From Hydrurus foetidus (lineage: Eukaryota), in assembly GCA_900617105.1 (NCBI GenBank), contig UYFQ01000199.1, positions 1 to 43,322 of the forward strand: 43,322 nucleotides of DNA, read 5' to 3'. A program made the translations under genes and the position numbers. This document shows positions 1 through 43,322 of the stretch, one piece after another; within the stretch, counting starts at the first letter, position 1; the number at the start of each line of letters is the position of its first letter. The notes beneath the pieces are model-generated. The model had not been told where the DNA came from. It saw only the letters and a list, made by a program, of their open reading frames with translations, and did no database searches.

Positions 1-1485
1 GTAAGTAATCACTTCATCAGGCATGGGTAGTGATGTGGCTTTAGTGCGTTTAACTATCTGTTCATTACTGAGTAACATGTAATACCAAGATCCTTCTAGA
101 TTGCCTGCACTCATTAGAGCGATAGCACCTGAAGTTCTGGCTTTATTACTATTATCAATATTATCAGAGTGCACTTGTACATAGTCACCAAAACCGTGTT
201 TCAGTTCTTTGTCCACGTTTATCTTCCTACCGTATAGTTTCTCTCTGGGGCTGACATAGTCTACGGTGTTCCTTGTCGGAACTAACACTATACGGTTAAC
301 AGCATATCTAACTAACCATCCCTCTAGCTTCTCAGTTAATCTAAATGGTAGTGTGTTGATTACTGCTCTAACTCTCTCTTTAATCTGTCTGATCTTACGC
401 TCGACTACGGTAACTGCCTCACCTGCACCTGTCGTGTCTAATGCAGTACCTATCGTTGCTAACTTAGTCTCAAACCATACTGAATTGATGGCGCCCTCTC
501 CATCAACTCTAACTAAATTTAAACTGAAACCATACTTAGTTATATGTCTGATATCGCTCTCTAAGCTAGTCCACAGTGTAAGATTGGCTCTGTTATTTAA
601 CTTATTTACCATAGTATATTCTAATGGCTTAACAACGGCAATTAAAAATGGATTGCCGTTAACAAACATAATGTCTATGTACATAATTTGATCTCTCTGT
701 TGTATATTATCTAACAGTGGTTGCTCCTCTTCAACCTGTGCCTGATGGCTTGGCGTTTTTCCCTTTAGGGAGCCTAAGTCAGGACCCCAGATATCCAAAG
801 ATCTAACTACATCTTGTGCTGTTATATTACTGTTAACTAGTTTACCCTGTCCTATCAGCTTAATTAACTGTCCTGGACTAGCGTATCCTAATTTCCTCTG
901 GTATTCTCTAGCTAACTCAGCTTGTTTTACCTGTCTAACTGTGTATTTCTTCATCTTATCTGTCACTGTTGTAACTAACATTAACTTAGGCTTACTTACC
1001 ATTGTGTCTAAATTACATATATATATATTATACTTTTCATCTCTGTTGAAATAGTAGCAACATCCGCCTCTTTTAATCTGCAAACTATAAAAATCGCTCC
1101 CACTACTATACTTCATAGAGTAACAATTATTTACCATGTTAGCAAAAGACAAGATGTTAGCTATACAATTAGGGTCAAAGTATACTAATCCAAAGTCCGT
1201 CGTACCGCACTCTCTTATAACCATCGGCTCTCCTCTACTATTGACTCCATTAACTATCATGGGTGGATCAGCAGGCACAATGTCATAGAACAGTGCAGCA
1301 GTTCTAAACACAGATTCGCCAGCACATGTGTCAAGAAGCAATTGATTGTCAGCAAATACATCAGAATCATTCGTGATATCTATGCTAAATATGTTGCTAT
1401 CTACTGCTGGAGTCTCCGACACTGGAGCTTCGTCATCTATGAGTTTAATTTGTACATATTTAGATATTCGTACGTGCTTAACATT
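1..1485 (-). CDS. pol: Copia pol (aspartic protease + DDE integrase), partial; no in-frame ATG before the protease active site
   Basis: Stop-free frame from 1485 to the window edge, absent from the ORF track. Protease LLLDTCA at ~1341-1321. Integrase D (YIDIMFV), D (RVDGEG), E (VERKIRQIKER), followed by SPREKLYG and FGDYVQ. Confidence 0.92.
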
Positions 1486-1558
1486 TTATTCACATCAACA
1501 GTCACATGGTTATTAACAGTACTAGCTATGTCATCATGTAAATAATCATATAAGTGAC

Positions 1559-2779
1559 TTACTTTCCCTTCCCAGGTGAAGCAGTTGGTTTTCCTCCTGG
1601 GCTCTTGCCTCCTTCCTCGCCCCAGTATTGAGCGACGGTGTCTGCAGCCTCAGATCTGCATTCCCGGGCTAGATGCCCATACTTTCCACAGTTATTACAC
1701 GGACCTCGTCTGTACCCCGCTGGTGGGGATTTGTTGGCAGTGTAAGCTCCCACAGGTGATCCTTTCTCTCTCGTTGATGCCTCCGGTGAGTCTGCTCCGT
1801 CCTTAACCCACTTTGCATTGGGTGCACCCTTTCCATTATGGCCTCCGGGGTATCCTCCTCTGTTACCTCTGCCTCCTCTTCCGGTCATTGAGAATGCATT
1901 CGCGCGCTCCATAGCTGCTGATGAGTTGGCGGCTGCTCTCTTAGGGTTGTATTTAGCAGCTTCTTGATACGCTGTTTCAAGACAATCTGGCCAGGGCTTT
2001 AGTCCATTAGTGAAGAAGGATTTGAACTCGCTATAGGCGTTGTTCAGTCCCAGAATAAATTTCACTGACATCTGACTCTCCATATGTATGTCGTCAATTC
2101 CTCCACAACCAGCCATCTCATATGCCTGCTGTATAGCAGTGAGTGCTGACTTCGTGTTCGTATAGTACATGCTTAGATTTTCATGCCCTCCCATAACTAG
2201 ATCATTGTATCTCTGTGTGATGACGTACATCTGATGAGCTATTCCCAGCGTAGAATCTCCGATATGAATTGCGAGAATTGCTTGCAGCAATTTCCTCGGC
2301 TCGAACTCATTCTCTGCCTCGACGCCTAGCTGCACTTCAGCTACTCTAGTTTTAGAGCTTTCGGACATCTGTCCTAGCATTGCACCGTATAGATTTCCTT
2401 TGTCCTCTTCTAGAGTTTTGATGTTTTTATTGTGGTCTACCATCGACAGTTCCCATATCTTTCTGTCATAAACTGTTGCACCATCCTGTGGTTGGTCTGG
2501 CAGTGCGTAGACTGGGTAATCTCCCAAGGTTCCATCTGCACCAAATATCATACTAACTCTTGATTTGAATGTTGTCATAGCGTACTCCTTTAGTTTTGCC
2601 ATCCATTTGGTAACCGCTCCATGGGCAATGTCCTTCCCAGGTGGTAGATCCAAATATGCTCCGATCGTCGGAATGTTTCCACGGTTGTGGTATGGTGTTG
2701 CTGGAGATCCTCTCCCACCACGACCGGCGAAATAACCTCGTCCACGTCCCTGGTGGTGGGGACTACCACGGCCTTTCAT
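1559..2779 (-). CDS. gag: Copia Gag, RGG-rich, with C-terminal zinc knuckle CNNCGKYGHLAREC
   Basis: ORF 1559..2800 in the track starts at TTG; the first ATG is 2779 (MKGRG). CX2CX4HX4C motif present. Lies directly after the LTR/PBS. Confidence 0.9.
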   Translation of the reverse strand: MKGRGSPHHQGRGRGYFAGRGGRGSPATPYHNRGNIPTIGAYLDLPPGKDIAHGAVTKWMAKLKEYAMTTFKSRVSMIFGADGTLGDYPVYALPDQPQDGATVYDRKIWELSMVDHNKNIKTLEEDKGNLYGAMLGQMSESSKTRVAEVQLGVEAENEFEPRKLLQAILAIHIGDSTLGIAHQMYVITQRYNDLVMGGHENLSMYYTNTKSALTAIQQAYEMAGCGGIDDIHMESQMSVKFILGLNNAYSEFKSFFTNGLKPWPDCLETAYQEAAKYNPKRAAANSSAAMERANAFSMTGRGGRGNRGGYPGGHNGKGAPNAKWVKDGADSPEASTREKGSPVGAYTANKSPPAGYRRGPCNNCGKYGHLARECRSEAADTVAQYWGEEGGKSPGGKPTASPGKGK

Positions 2780-2806
2780 CGTTGCAACTTCTTGTTGCAA
2801 GCGATG

Positions 2807-2817
2807 AGTGCTAATTA
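2807..2817 (-). promoter_or_regulatory. Putative primer-binding site TAATTAGCACT (non-tRNA; complementary to LTR 2958-2968)
   Basis: Directly abuts the ...CAACA LTR end and is the exact reverse complement of AGTGCTAATTA inside the LTR. Confidence 0.65.
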
Positions 2818-3170
2818 TGTTGTGAAATGTGGACTTAAAGGTGTGCCGTATATCCTATACGGTTGGTCACAAGCTCCCCACTGCACTCTCCGATGCGGCT
2901 TCACTCGCTCTGTCTGGACTCAGAAGAGAAGTTTCGCTGTCGGCTACGAGTTTGGGTTAATTAGCACTGCTGCAACGCAGTGGTGGTCGAGTGTAGTCAG
3001 TAGTTGTCGCAACAGGTTGATGGCTATCCTAGATCAAATACGTCATATCGTATGTAGTACGGTACTGCTGTGGTGCAACACCGTACGTGTGGTTCAAATA
3101 TGAAATACAGATAATAGCATCACAATTCGTATACGGAATATCTAGTCTACATAATACTGATATTACTACA
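2818..3170 (-). repeat. Inferred 5' LTR of Copia element 1 (TGTAGT...CAACA, ~353 bp)
   Basis: TG...CA termini. Both ends (TGTAGT..AT.AGTAT..ATGT and CAACA|TAATTA) are shared with Copia element 2. The partner LTR is outside the window, so boundaries are inferred. Confidence 0.7.
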
Positions 3171-3290
3171 CTGTACAGTGTGCATATATGTGCATCGCCA
3201 TACAGCCTTCAATAGCGAAGAGGAAGGTATAAAACGAGAGTAAGCAGTACATCAGGTTTTGATGCCATCCGGCAGCAAGAAGTGGGCGAG

Positions 3291-6074
3291 ATGTTACAGA
3301 AAATGCGGGGTCATAGCAGCTTTACTCGACCATTATGCAGTAGACAATGGAGTAACCTGATACGACGCGAGATAGAAACCAAATTGGTATCGAAGACCAC
3401 CACCCAGGAAGCCTTCGACAATTTTGTATCACTCCATCTCCTGGATTGTGACTGTGATGATATCAGCGATCTCATGCGTACCGTTGGCATGAAATCTTCC
3501 TCGAAATCCCATCTTTATCTGAGACGACATCTGCCTGCTGTTTCAACACAGATTGGATGTTTGTCATCTTCCGTTTGGACTTACGAAAGCATATCTTTTG
3601 TCATTAATGGTTTACAAGCAATGACTCCAAACGATGCGGGTTCGCTACAAATTATTGAAACGATGGTAAAAGTCGGTAACATAACTCTCGACGGGAAGTC
3701 GATACCCACAGGCGAGAATATCTCGATGGCAATGTTGGGTCTTCAGAACTACACTTGTGCGGAGAGAGCGGCCTTGGACTTCATCTCCATTCTGACGCGT
3801 ATGATACCGAAGTGTAAATCAGCATTTCGCCCCAAAGAGCTGAGTCATATCTTGTATTCCTTGAAAGGAATGAGGAGCGATACCGATGAAATTCGCGCTT
3901 TCATACTGGCAATCGTGCCCAAAATACGCAGCAACAAGGAATCATTCAACGTTCCACGCATCAGTAGCGCTGTTTACGGCCTCCAGGAAATGAAATGCAC
4001 AAGTTCAGAAGTACGCATGCTGGTCAAATCCCTGATACCAGCTATCAACATCATCAAGTATCCTTTCGATGCTCAAGCAGTTGGGAACTCTTTGTACGGA
4101 TTGAAGAACATGACTAGTGACAGCTCCGAGGTGCGCGGTCTGCTGTTTGCTATTACTTTGAGAATCAGAAGCTGCAATACAGAATTTACTGCTCAGAATA
4201 TTAGTAACGCCATGTATGGGTTGCGTTGCATGAGCGCGAAGGATTCAGATGTGCGTAATATCTTATCAGCTTTGGTGCCAAAGATCGTCACCTGTTGTAC
4301 GCCATTTACACCACAGAGTGTCGGGAGTTGTTTGTATGGGCTGCAATGTGTGAGCAGTGAGAGTGAGGAAGCGCGGACAATACTGCGGGTTCTACTGCCG
4401 AAAGTACAGGGCTGCACTGCAAACTATAATTCTCAGAATGTAGCTAATGCGCTGTATGGTCTACAATGCATGAGCGATGACTGCAGCGAAGTGCGCGCTA
4501 TTCTGTCAGCTTTAACGCCTGGAGTTCGAGAGTGCAAGACGCACTTTGACGAGCAGTCAATCAGCATGGCTCTGCACGGCATGAAAAACATGAGCAGCGG
4601 CACTCATGCAGTGCAACTCATGATAGAAATTCTCGCGGGGATAACTGAGAAGGCGGCTATTAACATGAGTGGCAAGAGCATCTCCCATGCGATGTTGGGG
4701 ATGCAACGGTTCCGCCACACACACAAGGGAGTGCATTCATTAGCATCAGCTCTCACCAAACAACTGAATAACTCCACGAAGAAGTTCGACATGCCAGCCA
4801 TCAGCAATTCTCTACTGGGTCTGCAGAGCATGCGCAGCGAGAGCACTGAGATATGCTCCCTCCTGCAGTCTCTGGTTCCGAAAGTGCTGTCAGCGACAGG
4901 TCACATGGACGCCAGAGGTGTCGCCAATGCGCTGTACGGGTTGCAAGGGATGAGCTGCAACGAACCAGCGGTACGTGCTATGCTATCATCGCTCACACCT
5001 AAGGTGGAGTCCTGTACCACACCATTCGATGCTCAAGCAGTGGCGAAGTGTATGTACGGTATGAAGAGCATGAGCAGCGAGAGTGAAGAGGTCAGAGCGA
5101 TGTTGCGAAGGCTTACTCCTAAGATAGAGGGTTGCACTGAAATGCTCTCTGCTGACTGCATGGGCGAATGTCTCTATGGGCTACAAAGCATGGAGAATGA
5201 TAACGCAGAAGTCCTTACCTTGCTATCAGTACTCGGCACCAAGATAACACAAAGCACTTGCCAACTCCATCCCGTTTCTGTGGGTGATGCGCTGTATGGT
5301 CTACAAGGCATGAAGAGCGGCAGAGCTGAGATAACAACTCTGCTGTCGGCGATAGCAGAGAAGATGCCTGGGTGGGAGTCACCCATGGATGTGAGGTCAC
5401 TCGGATATGCGATGTACGGGTTAGCGGGACTCAGCAGTGAGATCCCAGCCATAACTATCCTTAATGTCCTTATCTATCACCTACAGATGTTGGCCAGAAG
5501 TACTTCTAACTTCAAGCAACTCACCAACGATGGCTTGTCGCATCTCAGTAGAAATGTCGCATTCACTTTGAATCGCTCTAGAAATGAGCCGCTTAACGTC
5601 ATCTACGATATGCTTCGAAAGGAGTGGCAGCAGCGCAAGCACGCTCTCTCACCCGCACCACACATAGAATGCACAGAAGCAGAGCTGAGACTACTTGATG
5701 CTGCTGCTAAAGCAGTGGCAGGATCTAGTGTAGAAGTGCTACCCACTCACAACTTATTTGGCTTGTTTGAGTGCAACATCGTATTGAAGATTCCTCGCCA
5801 ATCTGAGAGTACCAACGTTTCCGACAGTGTCACAACGCCACATTTCACCTACGTGACTGTAGAAATAGAACGTACCTATGAGAGGGTAACGGAGAAGCGC
5901 TTCTGCATTAGGAGAGATGCACTCTTGGCCGCACAGGGAGTTGTTGTAAAGAGAATAGAAAGCGACCAAGTAATGCACATGGCACAAAGCGACTTGGAAA
6001 AATGGACTATAGCGGCTATGACCGATGTCTCTCATCCTAATTACCAAAATCGAATCCTTGCGACTGCCTCTTGA
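3291..6074 (+). CDS. Helical-repeat protein (16 x 40-aa 'LYGL' repeats, OPR/HPR-like) with C-terminal degenerate RAP domain; probably organelle-targeted RNA-binding protein
   Basis: Intronless ORF; first ATG is 3291. Repeat consensus FxxQxVxNALYGLQxMSSxxxEVRxLLxxLxPKxxxC. C-terminal ECNIVL...VEIE...FCIRRDALLAAQGVVVKRI resembles RAP. N-terminus is Arg-rich and lacks acidic residues. Confidence 0.85.
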   Translation: MLQKMRGHSSFTRPLCSRQWSNLIRREIETKLVSKTTTQEAFDNFVSLHLLDCDCDDISDLMRTVGMKSSSKSHLYLRRHLPAVSTQIGCLSSSVWTYESISFVINGLQAMTPNDAGSLQIIETMVKVGNITLDGKSIPTGENISMAMLGLQNYTCAERAALDFISILTRMIPKCKSAFRPKELSHILYSLKGMRSDTDEIRAFILAIVPKIRSNKESFNVPRISSAVYGLQEMKCTSSEVRMLVKSLIPAINIIKYPFDAQAVGNSLYGLKNMTSDSSEVRGLLFAITLRIRSCNTEFTAQNISNAMYGLRCMSAKDSDVRNILSALVPKIVTCCTPFTPQSVGSCLYGLQCVSSESEEARTILRVLLPKVQGCTANYNSQNVANALYGLQCMSDDCSEVRAILSALTPGVRECKTHFDEQSISMALHGMKNMSSGTHAVQLMIEILAGITEKAAINMSGKSISHAMLGMQRFRHTHKGVHSLASALTKQLNNSTKKFDMPAISNSLLGLQSMRSESTEICSLLQSLVPKVLSATGHMDARGVANALYGLQGMSCNEPAVRAMLSSLTPKVESCTTPFDAQAVAKCMYGMKSMSSESEEVRAMLRRLTPKIEGCTEMLSADCMGECLYGLQSMENDNAEVLTLLSVLGTKITQSTCQLHPVSVGDALYGLQGMKSGRAEITTLLSAIAEKMPGWESPMDVRSLGYAMYGLAGLSSEIPAITILNVLIYHLQMLARSTSNFKQLTNDGLSHLSRNVAFTLNRSRNEPLNVIYDMLRKEWQQRKHALSPAPHIECTEAELRLLDAAAKAVAGSSVEVLPTHNLFGLFECNIVLKIPRQSESTNVSDSVTTPHFTYVTVEIERTYERVTEKRFCIRRDALLAAQGVVVKRIESDQVMHMAQSDLEKWTIAAMTDVSHPNYQNRILATAS

Positions 6075-35389: not shown

Positions 35390-35928
35390 ATCCAGCCTCG
35401 CGACCCAGCCCCTTGAGCCAGCATTTTATTTGGTCGTCGGATCGAGCGCGAATTTTTTGTGGAATTTTTTTTCTGAACTGAAACCTCGACCTAACCCTAA
35501 TCTGATTGTAACTGAACCCTAACGCAGCAATCGCCACCGAACCCTAACTCAGCAATTGCCACTGAACCCTAACTCAGCAACTGCCACCTAACCCTAACTC
35601 AGTACGACAAACATTCAATTTTCTTTCCAGAATCCTTGCCGTGAACCCTAACCTTATCGTAACTGAACCCTAATTTAGCGACTGCAACCAAAATCCAATT
35701 TTGACGTCGAAGAGCGGTAACTGAGCCAGAAGTCCTCACAAAATGTTGAAAAAAATTCTACCAGCTCGATCCCGCGACCAAAAGAGTTAAGAGAAGCGCC
35801 TGGCCACTTGGCCAACAGTGCCCAGCTGGATTTTTCTCGAGAAAAAATACTCGAATTTGTGATAAATTCGCGCTCGATCCGACGACCAAAAAAATGCTGA
35901 CTCAAAGGGCTGGGTCGCGAGGCTGGAT
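35390..35928. mobile_element. Non-autonomous TIR element (MITE-like, ~540 bp) with ~65-bp terminal inverted repeats
   Basis: ATCCAGCCTCGCGACCCAGCCC...GGTCGTCGGATCGAGCGCGAATTT at 35390-35455 is the near-perfect reverse complement of 35864-35928. No coding capacity. TSD ambiguous. Confidence 0.85.
35511..35602 (+). repeat. 25-bp tandem repeat (3.7 copies) containing telomere-like AACCCTAA
   Basis: Units ACTGAACCCTAAC(G/T)CAGCAA..GCC start at 35511, 35536, 35561 and 35586. Confidence 0.9.
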
Positions 35929-35941
35929 AATCTTTCCGTGC

Positions 35942-36230
35942 TGTAGTTGTATAGTATATGTGTGGATCCTGACGGTCAGCGGTGTGCATCCTGGGGATGT
36001 GGACTCTGGACCGTTGGTTGTATGGGCTCATGGAGCCATCCATTCATCTATCTTCAACATGGATAGAACATGTGCAATTGCCTAGATATGTAAAGCTTCG
36101 TTGCCGTCTTGATTGATGCCGGTGCACAAGTTTAATTATCAAGTAATTACACAGTACAAGTCTATTTTACGAGCCTTGGGTCACCGGTAGCAAGAGTCAC
36201 TAAGCATCCGGACTTAGAGAAAGCCCAACA
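35942..36230 (+). repeat. Inferred 5' LTR of Copia element 2 (TGTAGT...CAACA, ~289 bp)
   Basis: Same terminal motifs as element 1 and lies 25 nt before the gag ATG. Partner LTR not in the window. Confidence 0.7.
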
Positions 36231-36240
36231 TAATTAAACT
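36231..36240 (+). promoter_or_regulatory. Putative primer-binding site TAATTAAACT (complementary to LTR 36129-36138)
   Basis: Abuts CAACA and is the exact reverse complement of AGTTTAATTA in the LTR. Confidence 0.65.
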
Positions 36241-36255
36241 AAGCAGCGCACCGAG

Positions 36256-37673
36256 ATGCCGCCGAAGAAACTAGAAGAACCAAAATCAGGTGCAGAGCCG
36301 TGCATGCTGAAATTTGGGCGTTACAACAACGTGGTTCAGTGGAGGGAAGATATGCAGAACGAGGCATGCGGCCTCTACGGGATGACGGGCACGTTCTTCA
36401 CCACCAACAAGAGTTACGCCCATCCGTATCCTCGCGAGGAGGACTACAACCCCACCTTTCTAACGGTGGAAATTGATACCCCGACAGCGGGTACCGAAAA
36501 CGAAGACGAGGAAGACGAGTCCGTAGACTTCGAAAATGTCATGATCGGGCCACAGCTTCCTCCAGAGCCCTCTGTCGTGTACTCCGAGGCACTTATCGAC
36601 AGGCTGAGAGCCAATGCGTTCGAGGGACGCCGCAAGGCAGTAGAGACTCAAAAAGTCGACGAGCAAAAGCTCTTCCCACTCATGTGGTCGAGAATGTCGA
36701 CGGGGTCCAAATCCAAGGTGCGCGAGGAACCAGGATTCGAAGCGGCCCGTCTCAGACTTGACAGTGTGAAACTGTGGGAGTACATTCGTAGGAGCCACTT
36801 AACTCACGTCTACGGAGAAGATGATTGAATGAGAGCAATGAACGTTCACGAGCAAACGATTAGGTACAACTACCTCAGACAAGGTGAACGTGAAATAATA
36901 GGCGATTTCAAGACACGCTTCGACAATCAGGTATTAGCCAACAGAGGTGTTGGCATGACTGAAGTAGAAGAACCGATTAGAGCAATCGACTTCCTCAGTA
37001 AGTTAGACCCGAAAAGGTATACCGGTATGTTGACACTGATGCGTAACAACGCTGTACAAAACCTGCCGAATAGTTTCCCTTCTACCTTAGCCGGAGCCTA
37101 CAGGGTAGCGTCATCCTGGACCAGCTCGGGCGGCGGAGTCCCCCTCGGAGCCGAGCAACATTCCGCATTCCTCACTGACTCTTTGATAGGCACAAAGGAA
37201 AAAGTCCCGGGAAAAGGATCGAAGGGGAAGACAGCGGGGACGAAGAAGAAAGTATCGTCAGTGATATGTTTCGTTTGCGGAAAGACGGGTCATTTCGCAA
37301 GAGATTGTGATCAACGCAAAGATGGAGAGCACGCTCTACTCACCAGCGTTGAAGAAGATATTGAGGAGGACGACGAGAGCATAGAAGCAGCCTTCGTCGC
37401 GACAGACGTAGTCGTACTTTTCACTCGCAATCACGTGCTTCTAGGCAACCAAGATTCGGTTAACATCTTTTGCAACCCAAGCCTTCTCACGGATATTAGG
37501 AAATCGCAACACGCGATCCTGTTTAATGGAGTACAGTCCGAAGCGCATGGAGTCAGAGTCGATCAAGAAGGAGACTTTGGCGAGATTGGACCTGTCTACT
37601 TCAGTCGTGGGGCAACGGCCAACATACTGTCCTTCGCCGCCATGGCAGACAGCGGAGCAGACATCAGCTACTA
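36256..37673 (+). pseudogene. gag-pol: Copia gag-protease, single frame with one in-frame TGA (36826-36828) and a degenerate protease active site
   Basis: ORFs 36256..36828 and 36829..37692 are contiguous in one frame. LLGNQ occurs where LLD is expected. Confidence 0.85.
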
Positions 37674-37942
37674 TGGTCATAACGGGGCCTAGGACGGAGG
37701 ACGGAGGTTTCGATAGTTGACGGAGGATTAAAGACGGAGGCGTGGGACACGAGAAGACGTTGCTAGGAGGGATAACGTTGTGTTTATAGTTTACAGTTAA
37801 AGGATAGGTGATGTACAGTCTCCTAACAGGGCGGGAGATCTATGTAGAACTAAGACCTAAAACTGGAATCTGGGCGTATTGTACCTATTGTACCTAGTTA
37901 ACCTAGACACATTGTATCCACCTAGGGATGCATAAGGCTACA
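37674..37942 (-). repeat. Gypsy 3' LTR (TGTAG...GACCA, 269 bp)
   Basis: Matches 43116-43322 with about 5 differences over ~207 nt by eye. Starts with TG immediately after the PPT. Contains four GACGGAGG copies. Confidence 0.92.
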
Positions 37943-37962
37943 CTACCCCTTCTTCCTTTTTT
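37943..37962 (-). promoter_or_regulatory. Polypurine tract AAAAAAGGAAGAAGGGGTAG
   Basis: Purine run directly upstream of the 3' LTR TG on the minus strand. Confidence 0.88.
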
Positions 37963-38142
37963 GAAAATCAACACCAATATGTGTTAGAGAAAAAAAGTAT
38001 ATGTATATATATATAGCGTATAAAAACTTGAAACGATTATGTCAGACTTTTACTGACTAAACTCTCCAAAAAAGACCCGTAGGTAAAAAAAATGGGAGAG
38101 AATCCTCATGGATAAAGTTTCAAGGATATATGTATATAAAAG

Positions 38143-39909
38143 TCAACGATGTTGTTTATTGATTAAATTGGTCATACTATTATGACGTAAATAATCATGA
38201 AGTTTAACAACGTCACGAAGACTTGAATAAGGTTCCCAAGTGTTTTTGTCAGAAGGGTAATTTAACCACTTGACTAAAAACTCTATGTGGGTGCGTTGAT
38301 GTTTACCACGATGTTCAAGAATATCTTCAACGAAGTATTCCATGTGATCACGTCGTGCAACATCTAACGGATTTGTGATTGATGAGTCAAATAGAAAAGG
38401 TTTCATGGAAGATACATGAAATTCTGATGTTTTCTGAGTGACGAGATCATATAAAGTGTAACGCGAATTTTCGCCACTAACGACTTTTAATGGACCTCTC
38501 CAATGCGTGTGAAGACGTGAAGGAGGTGATCCATCGCGATAGTGCACCAAGACATAAGAGTCTTTTGGATACTCTACATGTTGAAAGATTTGAGACTGAC
38601 TTTGATGAAGCAAATCTGTGCGAAGAAGTTCTTTAGCAGAAGCTTTAAGAAGGCTTTCTTGCGTTTTGAGCAGATTGCTCATACGCTTTGACAAAGGTTT
38701 GTCATCAGTAACGTTTCGCTCAGCAGGAGGTAAAAAAATACCTCTGTCGAGTTTCAGTACATTTCCGAAAAGAAGTTGAGAAGCTGATATCTTTAAACGA
38801 TCACTGTGGTTAGAATTTAAAATTCGTTGCACAAAAGGAAGTGATGTTTTATAATCTTCTAGTGTGACATTATCGAATGTTAATGCACGAAGATGTCTAT
38901 TAACTTCTTTATTCATGCGCTCAACAATAGCATTTTCTTCTTTAGAGTATGCTAAAGTAAGACAATGTTGAGTGCCAATAAGAGTTAGAAACTCTTTGAT
39001 AACTTCGGAAATGAAGTGTGGCCCATTATCAGAACGGAGTTGGAGAGGTGCGCCGAAACGACCGAAATGTTGCAAGAGGCATTTAGCTGTTGAAAGTGCC
39101 GTAGCATCTTCTGTATGAAACAGTTCAACCCATCTTGTGAACGTATCGATAATTACGAGTACGTACCCGCCGTCTGGAAACGGTCCTATGAAGTCTATGT
39201 TAAGGCATTCCATAGGTGTGTAAGTAGAAGTCGAGAAGCCATGAGCATTTATTGGTATCTTTAACATACTCATCTTCTGACAACACGAACAGTGATCTAT
39301 GAACCACCTGACATGCTGTCGCATATATTGCCAACTTTCATTATTATCTTTGAGACGCTTTAGAGTGCGCTCTAGACCGAAATGTCCAACTTGTGAGTTG
39401 TGTACTTTACTGATAATATTGTACTGCTCACGTGTTAGTTTAAATTTCTCAATAATATTAGCAGACATGATTGCATCAGGAGTATATTCCTGAGGGAAAT
39501 CAACCATGTTATTGCGACAGAGTCGAGACATCGAATCAGCTATATCATTGTTAGATCCAGGTATATACTCAATCTTAAATGAATATTCGGATAAGGCCAT
39601 AAACCACCGAACAATCATTGGATTTGAATTATCCTTGATGTATAACAAGTTACGATGATCTGTTCGTAATGTAAACAAACGATCACGTAATAGCGATTTT
39701 AAATACGTGCACGAATAAAAGATAGCATATGCTTCTTTCTGTATAACAGCCCAACGAAGCTGAGCTTTGTTAAGTGATTTACTGACAAATGCTATGGGCG
39801 TCTCTTGACCGTCAACTAACTGGAAAAGATAGGCACCTACACCGTAGTCCGATGCATCAGTGTGCAAGTAAATCGGATCGGTGTCACTAAAAAGTGCATA
39901 GTCGTGCAT
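38143..39909 (-). CDS. pol: Gypsy pol C-terminal part: RNase H, integrase, chromodomain
   Basis: TDASDYGVGA, QKEAYAI, H..GHFG...CSCCQK, IDFIGP, SDNG, VERMN; chromodomain YFVEDIL...FLVKWLNY...NTWEP. Confidence 0.95.
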   Translation of the reverse strand: MHDYALFSDTDPIYLHTDASDYGVGAYLFQLVDGQETPIAFVSKSLNKAQLRWAVIQKEAYAIFYSCTYLKSLLRDRLFTLRTDHRNLLYIKDNSNPMIVRWFMALSEYSFKIEYIPGSNNDIADSMSRLCRNNMVDFPQEYTPDAIMSANIIEKFKLTREQYNIISKVHNSQVGHFGLERTLKRLKDNNESWQYMRQHVRWFIDHCSCCQKMSMLKIPINAHGFSTSTYTPMECLNIDFIGPFPDGGYVLVIIDTFTRWVELFHTEDATALSTAKCLLQHFGRFGAPLQLRSDNGPHFISEVIKEFLTLIGTQHCLTLAYSKEENAIVERMNKEVNRHLRALTFDNVTLEDYKTSLPFVQRILNSNHSDRLKISASQLLFGNVLKLDRGIFLPPAERNVTDDKPLSKRMSNLLKTQESLLKASAKELLRTDLLHQSQSQIFQHVEYPKDSYVLVHYRDGSPPSRLHTHWRGPLKVVSGENSRYTLYDLVTQKTSEFHVSSMKPFLFDSSITNPLDVARRDHMEYFVEDILEHRGKHQRTHIEFLVKWLNYPSDKNTWEPYSSLRDVVKLHDYLRHNSMTNLINKQHR

Positions 39910-41570
39910 TTAGAAATCTCGGATTTGATCAAATTGAATGCTCTGAGAGCTTCTATTGTCCAAGTTATTTTCTTATACTTATTATAGTTAAGAAGCAACT
40001 GATGTAACGGGTATACAACAGTAGAAGCGTTTCTAACAAAGTCGTGAAAATAATTAACCAATCCTAAAAAACTTTTAAGTTGTTTAGATAGTACTGGTTT
40101 AGGAAAATCTAAGACAGTCCGTATTTTTCTTGTGACATTCTAAGTCCATCCGCAGATAGAACTTTGCCAACATAGTCTATTTCGGCATAGCCTAGATAAC
40201 ACTTATTCGGTTTAAGGAATATTTTGTGTTTTCTAAAGCGTTCAAAACAAGACGAAGTCTAGAAATGAGTTCATCAATGTCTTTACCGAAAACATTGCAA
40301 TCATCGATGTACATTTCGCATATAGAGTATATCAGACCTGCTAACACAACAGTCGTCATGATCTGTTGGAAATAGGAGGGAGCTTGTTTTGGCCCAAAGG
40401 GTAAACGAGTGAATTGATATACTCCGCAGAAAAGTATGAATGCAGTAAAGCACGTGCAGCGAGTGTAAGTGGTGCTTGATGATAACCTTGAGTGAGGTCA
40501 AGTACAGCAAACACTTTTGCTTTATGTGCACCTATTCTACGCAACATCTCACCGATGTGTGGAATAGGATGTGATTTATCTTCGGTACAATTGTTGAGAT
40601 TCCGAAAATCAATACACATGCGCTTAGTTCCATCAGATTTTGGAACTAGTAAAACTTGGCTATAATAAGCCGCGTTTGATTTTTCAACAATATTATGTTT
40701 TTCAAGTTTGTTAATCTGACTAAGAATGTCAGCTTGATCAACTGTTGATTTAGACCATGGAGGTTGTCTATTTCTAGGGACTCTCCATTGGTCGTCATTG
40801 ACATGAAAGTCAAAAGGTGGAATATCAGCAGGAGTGGCCGAAAGTTCACTGCTAAATATATCCTTGAATTCGTTTACTAGTAATCGAAGTTTATTTTTCT
40901 GATCTTCATCACCTGCTAAGTTTATTAGCGAGAGTGGGTCAGTATCAGGAAACTCATCTATCCAAGGTGAAAACGAGTCCTTGATCGAGTCGTCGATTTC
41001 ATCCTCATCAGGGGGCACAGACTCAAAAAGTCTTTCAGACTCTTGTATTAGTGAGGCTAGAATAACGTGTGTTTGAGTGACTGCCGGTTTCACCTTTTGG
41101 GTTAAAGGATCGACTTTTGGGGAGCCGTCGGAGGGTAGCAAATTCTCCTTAGGCTGACAGCCACACGTTATATCCACCTGCTCAGAAGATAAAACTTCCG
41201 CTAACGGGATTGTGCTTGATGAAGCATTGGCAGATATCTGATCTGGGAATCGTGAAAACAAATTCAATTCGCGAATTGATTTTCGTCCCACTATTAGATC
41301 AAATTTTGAATCGTTTAAAACATAAGCCGTGATTTGAAAAGTATAATGATTATTTAAATCAGGGCAAAAATAAGAAAGAGTTAAGTCTATAGTGTCAGAA
41401 ATATCATAACAATGATTATCTAGTCCACTACAAACTTTACACAATTTCTCTGAAGAGTTAGAAACGAATTGTGTGAAATTATGATTAGTTATAATGCGGC
41501 GATGTATAAAGTTGCCAGCAAAAGAGCCGGTGTCCAGGAGAGTAAAGACTCTATTACTTTTTTCCAGCAT
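39837..41570 (-). pseudogene. pol: Gypsy protease and reverse transcriptase, broken by several frameshifts
   Basis: LLDTGS, RMCIDFRNLN, LDLTQGYHQ, YIDD and FLGLVNYF are spread over different frames. Confidence 0.9.
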
Positions 41571-41641
41571 AACCTCCTGTGAGAGGGGAGATATGAAGAA
41601 AGGAATAAGTTCTGGATCATCGGAAAGAATAGATGATGAAT

Positions 41642-43011
41642 TTAGGTTGCATAGTTGCTCACCCTTGTGTTTCTTCGCTGGGTTTGTCGAGTCTGCTGTT
41701 GAAGTAGCAGGTTTTGACGAAGAGGAAGAGGAGAAGAGGAAGACGATGAAGAAGAGGTCGATGGCTTAGGTAAAGTTGGAATAAACTTAGCCTTTGAATC
41801 GACTTTCAACAACTGCTTATGACCCTCAGAGTTAATGTAGGGTGTCTGTACTATTATAGTACGGAGACGTAGTGTAGAAACACGTGGCGACGAAATGGCC
41901 AAGTCTCCCACAACCTGTGCACAGAGGTCTTTCGAATTTGTCAGACTTGTCTGATTGCACAGATTGCTCGTCCTCTCGTGGACGTTTTTTGATTTTGTCC
42001 TGAGAGGAACGAGCAGGAGCTTTGATTTGGCGAGAGTTATCACCATACAAAGGAGAGACATCAATGAACCGTAAGGCATCAATTGATTCTCGTAGCTTAG
42101 CAAGCTGCGCAAGCCATACGAATCGGAAGTCTTCGATTGTAATGAGTCTTGGCGTTGTATTGTTAAGACTACGCTGTAACACTGCTCTCCAATTGATAGG
42201 TTCGACAGGCAACTTATCGATGAGAATTTTGGTTGCCTGAAGTTGGAGAGCGGGTGTTGCATCAGGGAATCCATCAACAATATCAGCTAAAAGCTGATCT
42301 GTCTTGTCTTCCACTGATTTATTCTTCAGGTCGAATTGAAGTGCGACCTGAGAAACAGTTTCAATGAAGCTCAGCTTGTCAGTTCGATTGACAGCTGATG
42401 TAGGAACTGTGAGATTGAGTTCTCTACAGAACAATTGATTCGACCAATGTTTCCAATTGTTACAGGAGTCGCGACGATCGGGATCGGTCGCAAACTTACG
42501 CTTGAGAAGCGTTGTAAACGATTGATGGTTGGAAACATGGACTACGTCAACTGGTTTAAATGGAGTTCCATTTGAAAGGAGGACCTCCATTACCCGTAGT
42601 ACTTCCTGACGAGAGGGCACGGCGCTCAACTTAGGAGCTCTCTCACCCGTCTGCACATATTGCTGGGGTGGTGCCATCGTCCTTGGAATAGGATTCTCAG
42701 CAATAGCTGGTGTCGCAGCCAAAGCTGGTGTCGCAGCCGAAGCTGGTTGCAATGACAAAGCAGATAACGCAGAAATGACAGGAATATCAATGACAGACAT
42801 GACCGCAGGCTCCGAATTCCGCTGAGGAATCGGTGCAGACAGGTCGCCGGCGGGTCCTGAGCCGCAGGTGGCCCAGGAGACTCGAAATCTCCGCCACGAT
42901 TGTGGTGCTCATCATAACGTTGTCGGAAGGCGACGGCAACAGCTCGAGGTTGCTGTTGTCGACGAGGGCATTGATGGAACTGGTCTTCTTTTCCTGGCGA
43001 CGTACCGCCAT
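41642..43011 (-). pseudogene. gag: Gypsy gag with CTGCGRLGHFVATC knuckle, split over frames
   Basis: ORF 41832..42800 carries the knuckle; flanking frames (ATG at 43011; 41642 frame) probably continue it. Confidence 0.75.
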
Positions 43012-43115
43012 AACTTTAGCTTGATGGGGAATGTTGGAAGGAGTCGAAGGTAACAGTTGTAGAGAGAATAGAATTTCTCGGAGGAAACTTCGGTGACGAC
43101 CGAATATCGATATTA

Positions 43116-43322
43116 TGGTCTGAACGGGGCCTAGGACGGAGGACGGAGGTTCGATAGTTGACGGAGGATTAAAGACGGAGGCGTGGGACACGAGAAGACG
43201 TTGCTAGGAGGGATAACGTTGTGATTATAGTTTACAGTTAAAGGATAGGTGATGTACAGTCTCCTAACAGGGCGGGAGATCTATGTAGAACTAAGACCTA
43301 AAACTGGAATCTGGGCGTATTT
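43116..43322 (-). repeat. Gypsy 5' LTR, partial (runs off the window)
   Basis: Direct repeat of 37674-37880. Confidence 0.92.

Follow-up and report, generated by a model that had tools for sequence, protein, structure and literature searches.

How does a Copia retrotransposon begin minus-strand DNA synthesis when the word directly behind its 5' LTR lacks the TGG of a tRNA complement? The question is raised by element 1 of the window (the whole 43,322-nt stretch of DNA analysed here), for which the original prediction proposed a self-priming Copia design in which the RNA 5' end would anneal to the primer-binding site (PBS), with a possible second helix close by, an arrangement not known to its author as described for Copia. 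Our analyses strongly supported this architecture across the relatives of the element, while the second helix and the supposed novelty for Copia did not survive. On the basis of the sequence, we consider with some confidence that element 1 likely primes its minus-strand DNA with the 5' end of its own RNA rather than with a tRNA, in a Tf1-like manner.

Structure of element 1 and pairing between its LTR and PBS

Element 1 lies on the minus strand of the window and belongs to a high-copy family. The ends of its 5' LTR (2818..3170, minus strand; TGTAG...CAACA) were examined by aligning the contigs of two runs, with low-share runs left out, to positions 2400-3400, and contig divergence and steps in depth were found at both ends. 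At the outer end, contigs split off behind 3170/3171 (10 in X1; 8 and 7 in X2), and the summed depth falls from approximately 60,000 to approximately 105 behind 3170. At the inner end, one contig matches 2818-2975 and then carries 312 unlike letters beyond 2818, and the depth drops from approximately 170,000 to approximately 28,000 across this position. The boundary that had been placed at 2818 from the letters alone is borne out by this contig, which aligns from exactly 2818, and by the depth step at the same position. Because the ends are fixed at 3170 and supported at 2818, the LTR is 353 nt in length. Its TG...CA ends fit Ty1/copia, the 3' LTR lying outside the window, and 5-bp target duplications, as in Ty1/copia, were found in two relatives (L033 and L092).

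Concerning the coding region, the gag ORF of element 1 (1559..2779, minus strand) encodes 406 aa with a CCHC zinc knuckle and has a terminal stop, and the 5' part of pol (1..1485, minus strand), which is protease-like and then integrase-like, occupies a separate frame and runs off the window. The pol fragment gave no Pfam match. It shares 86% identity with the N-terminal portion of the protein P0001, and since P0001 carries RVT_2 downstream, a Copia-type domain order (PR-IN-RT-RH) is assigned to element 1, the reverse transcriptase of which lies outside the window. The gag stop precedes the protease in the subclade formed by element 1 (1486-1561, minus strand), L002, L003, L005, L006, L012 and L013, and the frame of pol after gag differs among these elements (0, +1 or +2). 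In element 1, a GTAAGT word overlaps the gag stop (1486-1561, minus strand), so that splicing may serve to express pol. On the other side of the LTR, an intronless frame of 952 aa (3216-6074, plus strand) begins 46 nt away; it contains repeats of approximately 40 aa, has a RAP-like end, and is expressed from the strand opposite to element 1.

The PBS of element 1, TAATTAGCACT (2817-2807, that is 2807..2817, minus strand), directly abuts the terminal CA of the LTR and does not begin with TGG, as had been predicted. It is the exact complement, over 11 nt, of AGTGCTAATTA within the LTR (2968-2958, that is 2958..2968, minus strand), the predicted self-primer. The minus-strand positions originally given for both 11-mers, as well as for the words GTTGCA and TGCAAC discussed below, were all correct. 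With the boundary fixed, 1.1e-4 copies of the complement of the 11-mer are expected by chance in the 353-nt LTR, and none of 100 dinucleotide shuffles attained 11 nt when the match was maximised over all 26 CA positions. The palindrome TAATTA within the word, which had been raised as a caveat, provides no explanation for a match 140 nt away. Among the 40 substitution rows listed out of 93 for the family contigs, none falls in either 11-mer; indels in the family occur at 2798, 2801, 2806 and 2807, the last of which affects the eleventh pair in approximately 5% of the depth. The pairing feature of element 1 is confirmed as real. In folding predictions, the primer-PBS helix has a probability of 0.91-0.93, and a transcript folded from 2968 closes this helix over three stems, together with a hairpin at 2806-2777 (z -4.3).

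Recurrence of the pairing in element 2 and in relatives

A second Copia element in the window has the same design in different letters. Its 5' LTR (35942..36230, plus strand), with ends placed from the TGTAG...CAACA motifs alone, is followed directly after CAACA by the 10-nt PBS TAATTAAACT (36231..36240, plus strand), the exact complement of a predicted self-primer at 36129..36138 (plus strand) that is preceded by C|A; gag runs from 36256. The number of copies of this complement expected by chance is 3.1e-4, and the helix is predicted with a median pair probability of 0.93, the overall fold being no better than that of shuffles (z 0.43).

A MITE-like element (35390-35928) with inverted arms of 41 nt and 31 nt, and with 25-nt internal repeats containing CCCTAA, lies directly upstream of the LTR of element 2, and a Gypsy chromovirus (37669-43322, minus strand), the LTRs of which are approximately 98% alike, is nested in the protease region of element 2. 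At the PBS position, the chromovirus harbors a 12-nt palindrome (43103-43114) without TGG; the complement to this position in its LTR never exceeds 6 nt, and the site resembles the hairpin site of the fungal GalEa elements.

To collect relatives of element 1, 73 homologous pol proteins were aligned, and this alignment led to 68 loci in metagenomes and 24 in prokaryote bins; a single-sequence metagenome scan gave no relatives, nor did the viral contigs. The 24 bin loci (L069-L092) are eukaryotic-type retrotransposons inside prokaryote genome bins and are probably eukaryotic contaminants of these bins. Forty-one of the 92 loci, two of them located by hand, covered the polypurine tract, the LTR and the start of gag, and the other 51 were left out as too short or as having no recognisable tract or ORF. 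Together with the two window elements, this gave a set of 43 elements in 36 clusters. Owing to the shared ancestry of the relatives, the clusters cannot be counted as wholly independent events. The polypurine tract, GG[G/A]G[T/A]G immediately in front of TGT, which the search pattern required, is highly conserved in the lineage, unlike the PBS.

A first rule, based on terminal inverted repeats only, returned a complement of at least 9 nt in 28 of the 43 elements, and a shorter one in 12, while 3 received no call; it picked the wrong end for element 1, a downstream CAACA look-alike. The final statistic, the best match after any CA, was adopted after inspection of 13 of the 15 misses, and all nulls were maximised in the identical way. 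By this statistic, a perfect complement of at least 9 nt (range 9-25 nt) is present in 35 of the 36 distinct elements and one of at least 10 nt in 32 of the 36, with a mean of 12.9 nt versus 6.5 in shuffles. At the threshold of at least 10 nt, the controls gave 1/36 for direct, 0/36 for reverse and 1/36 for complement matches, and 42 of 1260 cross-element pairs reached the observed length. Although a start at +2 was permitted, every best match starts at +1 after CA, and the LTR ends with CAACA, TAACA, CTACA or TTACA before 31 of the 35 paired PBSs. The sole miss, L053, has 6 nt by the final statistic, while its apparent end CAACG gives 10 nt post hoc. The boundary could also be determined independently at loci with two LTRs: in six of the seven, the LTR ends at the CA (within 2 nt) and a complement of 14-16 nt starts there, while the seventh (L029) gave no information. 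Of the six, L033 and L092 lie outside the 43-element set.

The complement at +1 after CA recurs across the lineage with different letters. At each PBS position between +1 and +9, three or four pair types were observed, and close relatives have changed on both sides of the helix (one change between L012 and L013, three between L028 and L041, and one between L005 and L015). Over their 9-25 nt, the helices contain Watson-Crick pairs only; at +10/+11, a single G-T was noted among the mismatched cells. The helix was predicted in 33 of 35 transcripts. In an integrase tree comprising 30 of the 43 elements, element 1 falls into a clade of nine with 100/100 support, all members of which pair over 9-12 nt, and the longer primers sit in other clades; identities to element 1 range from 27 to 51%.

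The second helix fared differently from the first. In element 1, GTTGCA (2971..2976, minus strand) and TGCAAC (2799-2794, minus strand) do offer 6 bp as sequence, but their predicted pairing probability is at most 0.005 when longer 5' ends are folded. The candidate was rejected, as GTTGCA precedes the start predicted at 2968 and TGCAAC is lost to a local hairpin directly 3' of the PBS (2777..2806, minus strand), which also holds the gag AUG and is predicted with a probability of 0.99-1.0. A local hairpin at this place is element-specific, being found in 9 of 35 elements at p<=0.05. A second helix of at least 6 bp occurs in 4 of 35 elements versus 3% of cross pairs, and two of these four are the window elements that had prompted the test. 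In element 2 (36120-36255, plus strand), a possible 6-bp second helix, CGGTGC/GCACCG, lies 7 nt past the PBS, like that of element 1; a helix so placed is not general among the relatives. A slightly more upstream transcription start in the host of elements 1 and 2 is possible.

Candidate primers and the predicted transcript start

Evidence for a tRNA primer was sought in the PBSs and in the surrounding DNA. None of the 35 PBSs starts with TGG, and they share no tRNA-like motif. The 43,322-nt window contains no tRNA gene, and ARAGORN, run at a relaxed threshold on the loci of the relatives, returned matches mostly with long predicted introns, none of which was tRNA-Ile; these matches were set aside. 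A tRNA B-box-like word is present within the LTRs of L008 and L009.

For element 1 in particular, approximately 8-9 nt of the PBS could presumably pair with the anticodon arm of tRNA-Ile, so that half a tRNA-Ile(AAU) might prime the element through this arm, as in the plant Bianca elements, and the LTR match would be incidental. Position 37 of tRNAs is a conserved purine, whereas full pairing with tRNA-Ile needs a pyrimidine there, which would leave a mismatch next to the 3' end of the primer. Moreover, the tRNA-Ile motif occurs in only one of the 35 elements, namely element 1, and is absent in element 2 of the same window, and half a tRNA-Ile leaves the 11/11 match to the LTR unexplained. Although a half tRNA-Ile is used in 92% of the 260 Bianca elements treated in PMC6317226, we regard its use by element 1 as extremely unlikely.

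The other edge of the helix points to the RNA 5' end. In 29 of 35 elements (5.6 expected), the 5' edge of the paired LTR site has a C|A step no more than 1 nt away, whereas such a step is found at the 3' edge in 0 of 35. If C|A is read as an initiator, as we infer, the predicted +1 of element 1 is 2968. Counted from the A of C|A, the predicted primer measures 11 nt in 11 and 15-16 nt in 12 of the 29 elements, and in 13 of the 29 the +1 A does not pair. RNA reads on element 1 numbered 14 and 20, from one sample (approximately 6% of each run), with none on gag and no start pile-up among them. Element-sense reads span approximately 3180 to 2944 and stop there; the stop near 2944 would fit a poly(A) site lying close to the primer, and proves nothing in itself.

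We propose the following course of events for element 1. Transcription would start at the A of C|A at 2968, and nucleotides 1-11 would base-pair with the PBS, closing a loop of 140 nt. The RT/RNase H of the element would then cut after the paired stretch, as in Tf1, leaving a 3'-OH for extension, and plus-strand synthesis would finally copy the primer into a new PBS. Because the primer would be recopied into the PBS in each such cycle, exact complementarity could be kept despite sequence drift.

An alternative hypothesis is that the helix is a structural long-range stem, acting in packaging, dimerisation or gag translation, and that another primer, for example an unrecognised host RNA or a protein, is used. 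Covariation indicates pairing, not priming, no primer was observed, and in element 1 the helix adjoins the hairpin that holds the gag AUG. However, in all 35 positive elements the helix has its first pair at +1, immediately behind the LTR end, leaving no other PBS, and its far edge coincides with C|A. In addition, a pure Watson-Crick helix of 9-25 nt fits templated copying better than it fits a structural stem. We judge the structural explanation to be decidedly improbable compared with priming by the element's own RNA.

Comparison with known systems and implications

The self-priming mechanism of Tf1 has been described (PMC7175516, PMC4600332), and in Tf1/Tf2, Tj1 and the Tf1/sushi group the PBS likewise lies directly after the CA of the LTR and is complementary to an upstream LTR site. 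The Tf1 primer is 11 nt in length, as predicted for element 1 (PMC7175516, PMC4600332, bioRxiv 2022.12.06.519325). The Tf1/sushi elements are Ty3/gypsy chromoviruses with the Gypsy domain order and a chromodomain, whereas the lineage of element 1 has the Copia order and RVT_2 and, unlike Tf1, a second primer class of 15-16 nt. Self-priming of Tf1 was shown by experiment, while that of element 1 is predicted from sequence. Tf1 also needs two further duplexes, which together with the first form a three-duplex "pretzel" (bioRxiv 2022.12.06.519325). Accessory duplexes of this kind were found in 3/35 and 2/35 elements at p<=0.05, which is near chance, although short duplexes could be missed at this level.

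This absence of the Tf1 accessory duplexes would also suit the same primer acting in trans, supplied by the 5' end of a second packaged RNA or by a short LTR transcript. Many PBSs start with near-palindromic AT-rich words, and cis and trans pairing are indistinguishable from sequence. On the other hand, 33 of 35 predicted transcripts favour pairing in cis, and Tf1 is the only demonstrated precedent in the sources consulted (PMC7175516). A primer in trans appears very improbable to us, and priming in cis by the 5' end of the same RNA is the reading we prefer.

Within Copia, self-priming has been predicted for 89% of 203 plant TAR elements in PMC6317226, which also refers to a previous proposal concerning Houba and Osr-1; such priming had thus already been predicted for Copia, which the original prediction did not know. 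In the same paper, self-priming is assigned where a complement of 10 bp or more begins 0-5 nt behind the LTR, a range that includes the 11 nt at +1 of element 1. TAR is a plant lineage, whereas the relatives of element 1 come from aquatic protist-type contigs, and their self-priming may have an origin independent of TAR. The fungal GalEa elements, as treated in PMC5445492, are described as being without a tRNA PBS and as having a Conserved Hairpin Site, with no LTR complement found. GalEa shares with element 1 its Copia affiliation, the lack of a tRNA PBS and a palindromic AT-rich word immediately behind the LTR. In GalEa, however, this word is a conserved 9-mer with its partner 12-41 nt downstream, while the lineage of element 1 has a variable PBS that pairs with an upstream partner in the LTR.

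Diatom CoDi elements have been described in PMC2806351, the main text of which makes no mention of tRNA or priming, and Branch 1 in PMC2774666; PMC6934838 provides further known context. Among the clusters of gag look-alikes, Bacillariophyta was the most frequent taxon where one was known (few records), weakly suggesting that the lineage of element 1 is diatom-type. The protein motifs of element 1 presumably resemble those of CoDi, and the CoDi label is plausible for it. Protein searches brought up no named Copia reference. We found no report of self-priming in diatom or stramenopile Copia in the literature covered, to which subscription papers, Repbase and GyDB did not belong. Repbase entries for diatom LTR elements are said to mention self-priming by palindrome.

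In a broader perspective, these elements may represent a large aquatic-protist Copia lineage in which self-priming arose independently of both Tf1/sushi and TAR, by means of a single duplex without the pretzel, primers of two preferred lengths (11 and 15-16 nt) and cutting by a Copia-type RNase H, a proposition for and against which we see about equal odds. So far, self-priming has been demonstrated only in the Gypsy element Tf1 and merely predicted for the plant TAR Copia elements. If the proposition is true, a diverse Copia lineage carries freely drifting primer/PBS pairs, tRNA independence would not be rare, and a Copia-type RT/RNase H could cleave without the accessory structure of Tf1. 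This would bear on the order of origin of tRNA priming and self-priming, a subject of PMC3601003. From the self-priming reading, a transcription start can also be predicted for every element, and this reading explains why PBS-based annotation would miss elements of this kind.
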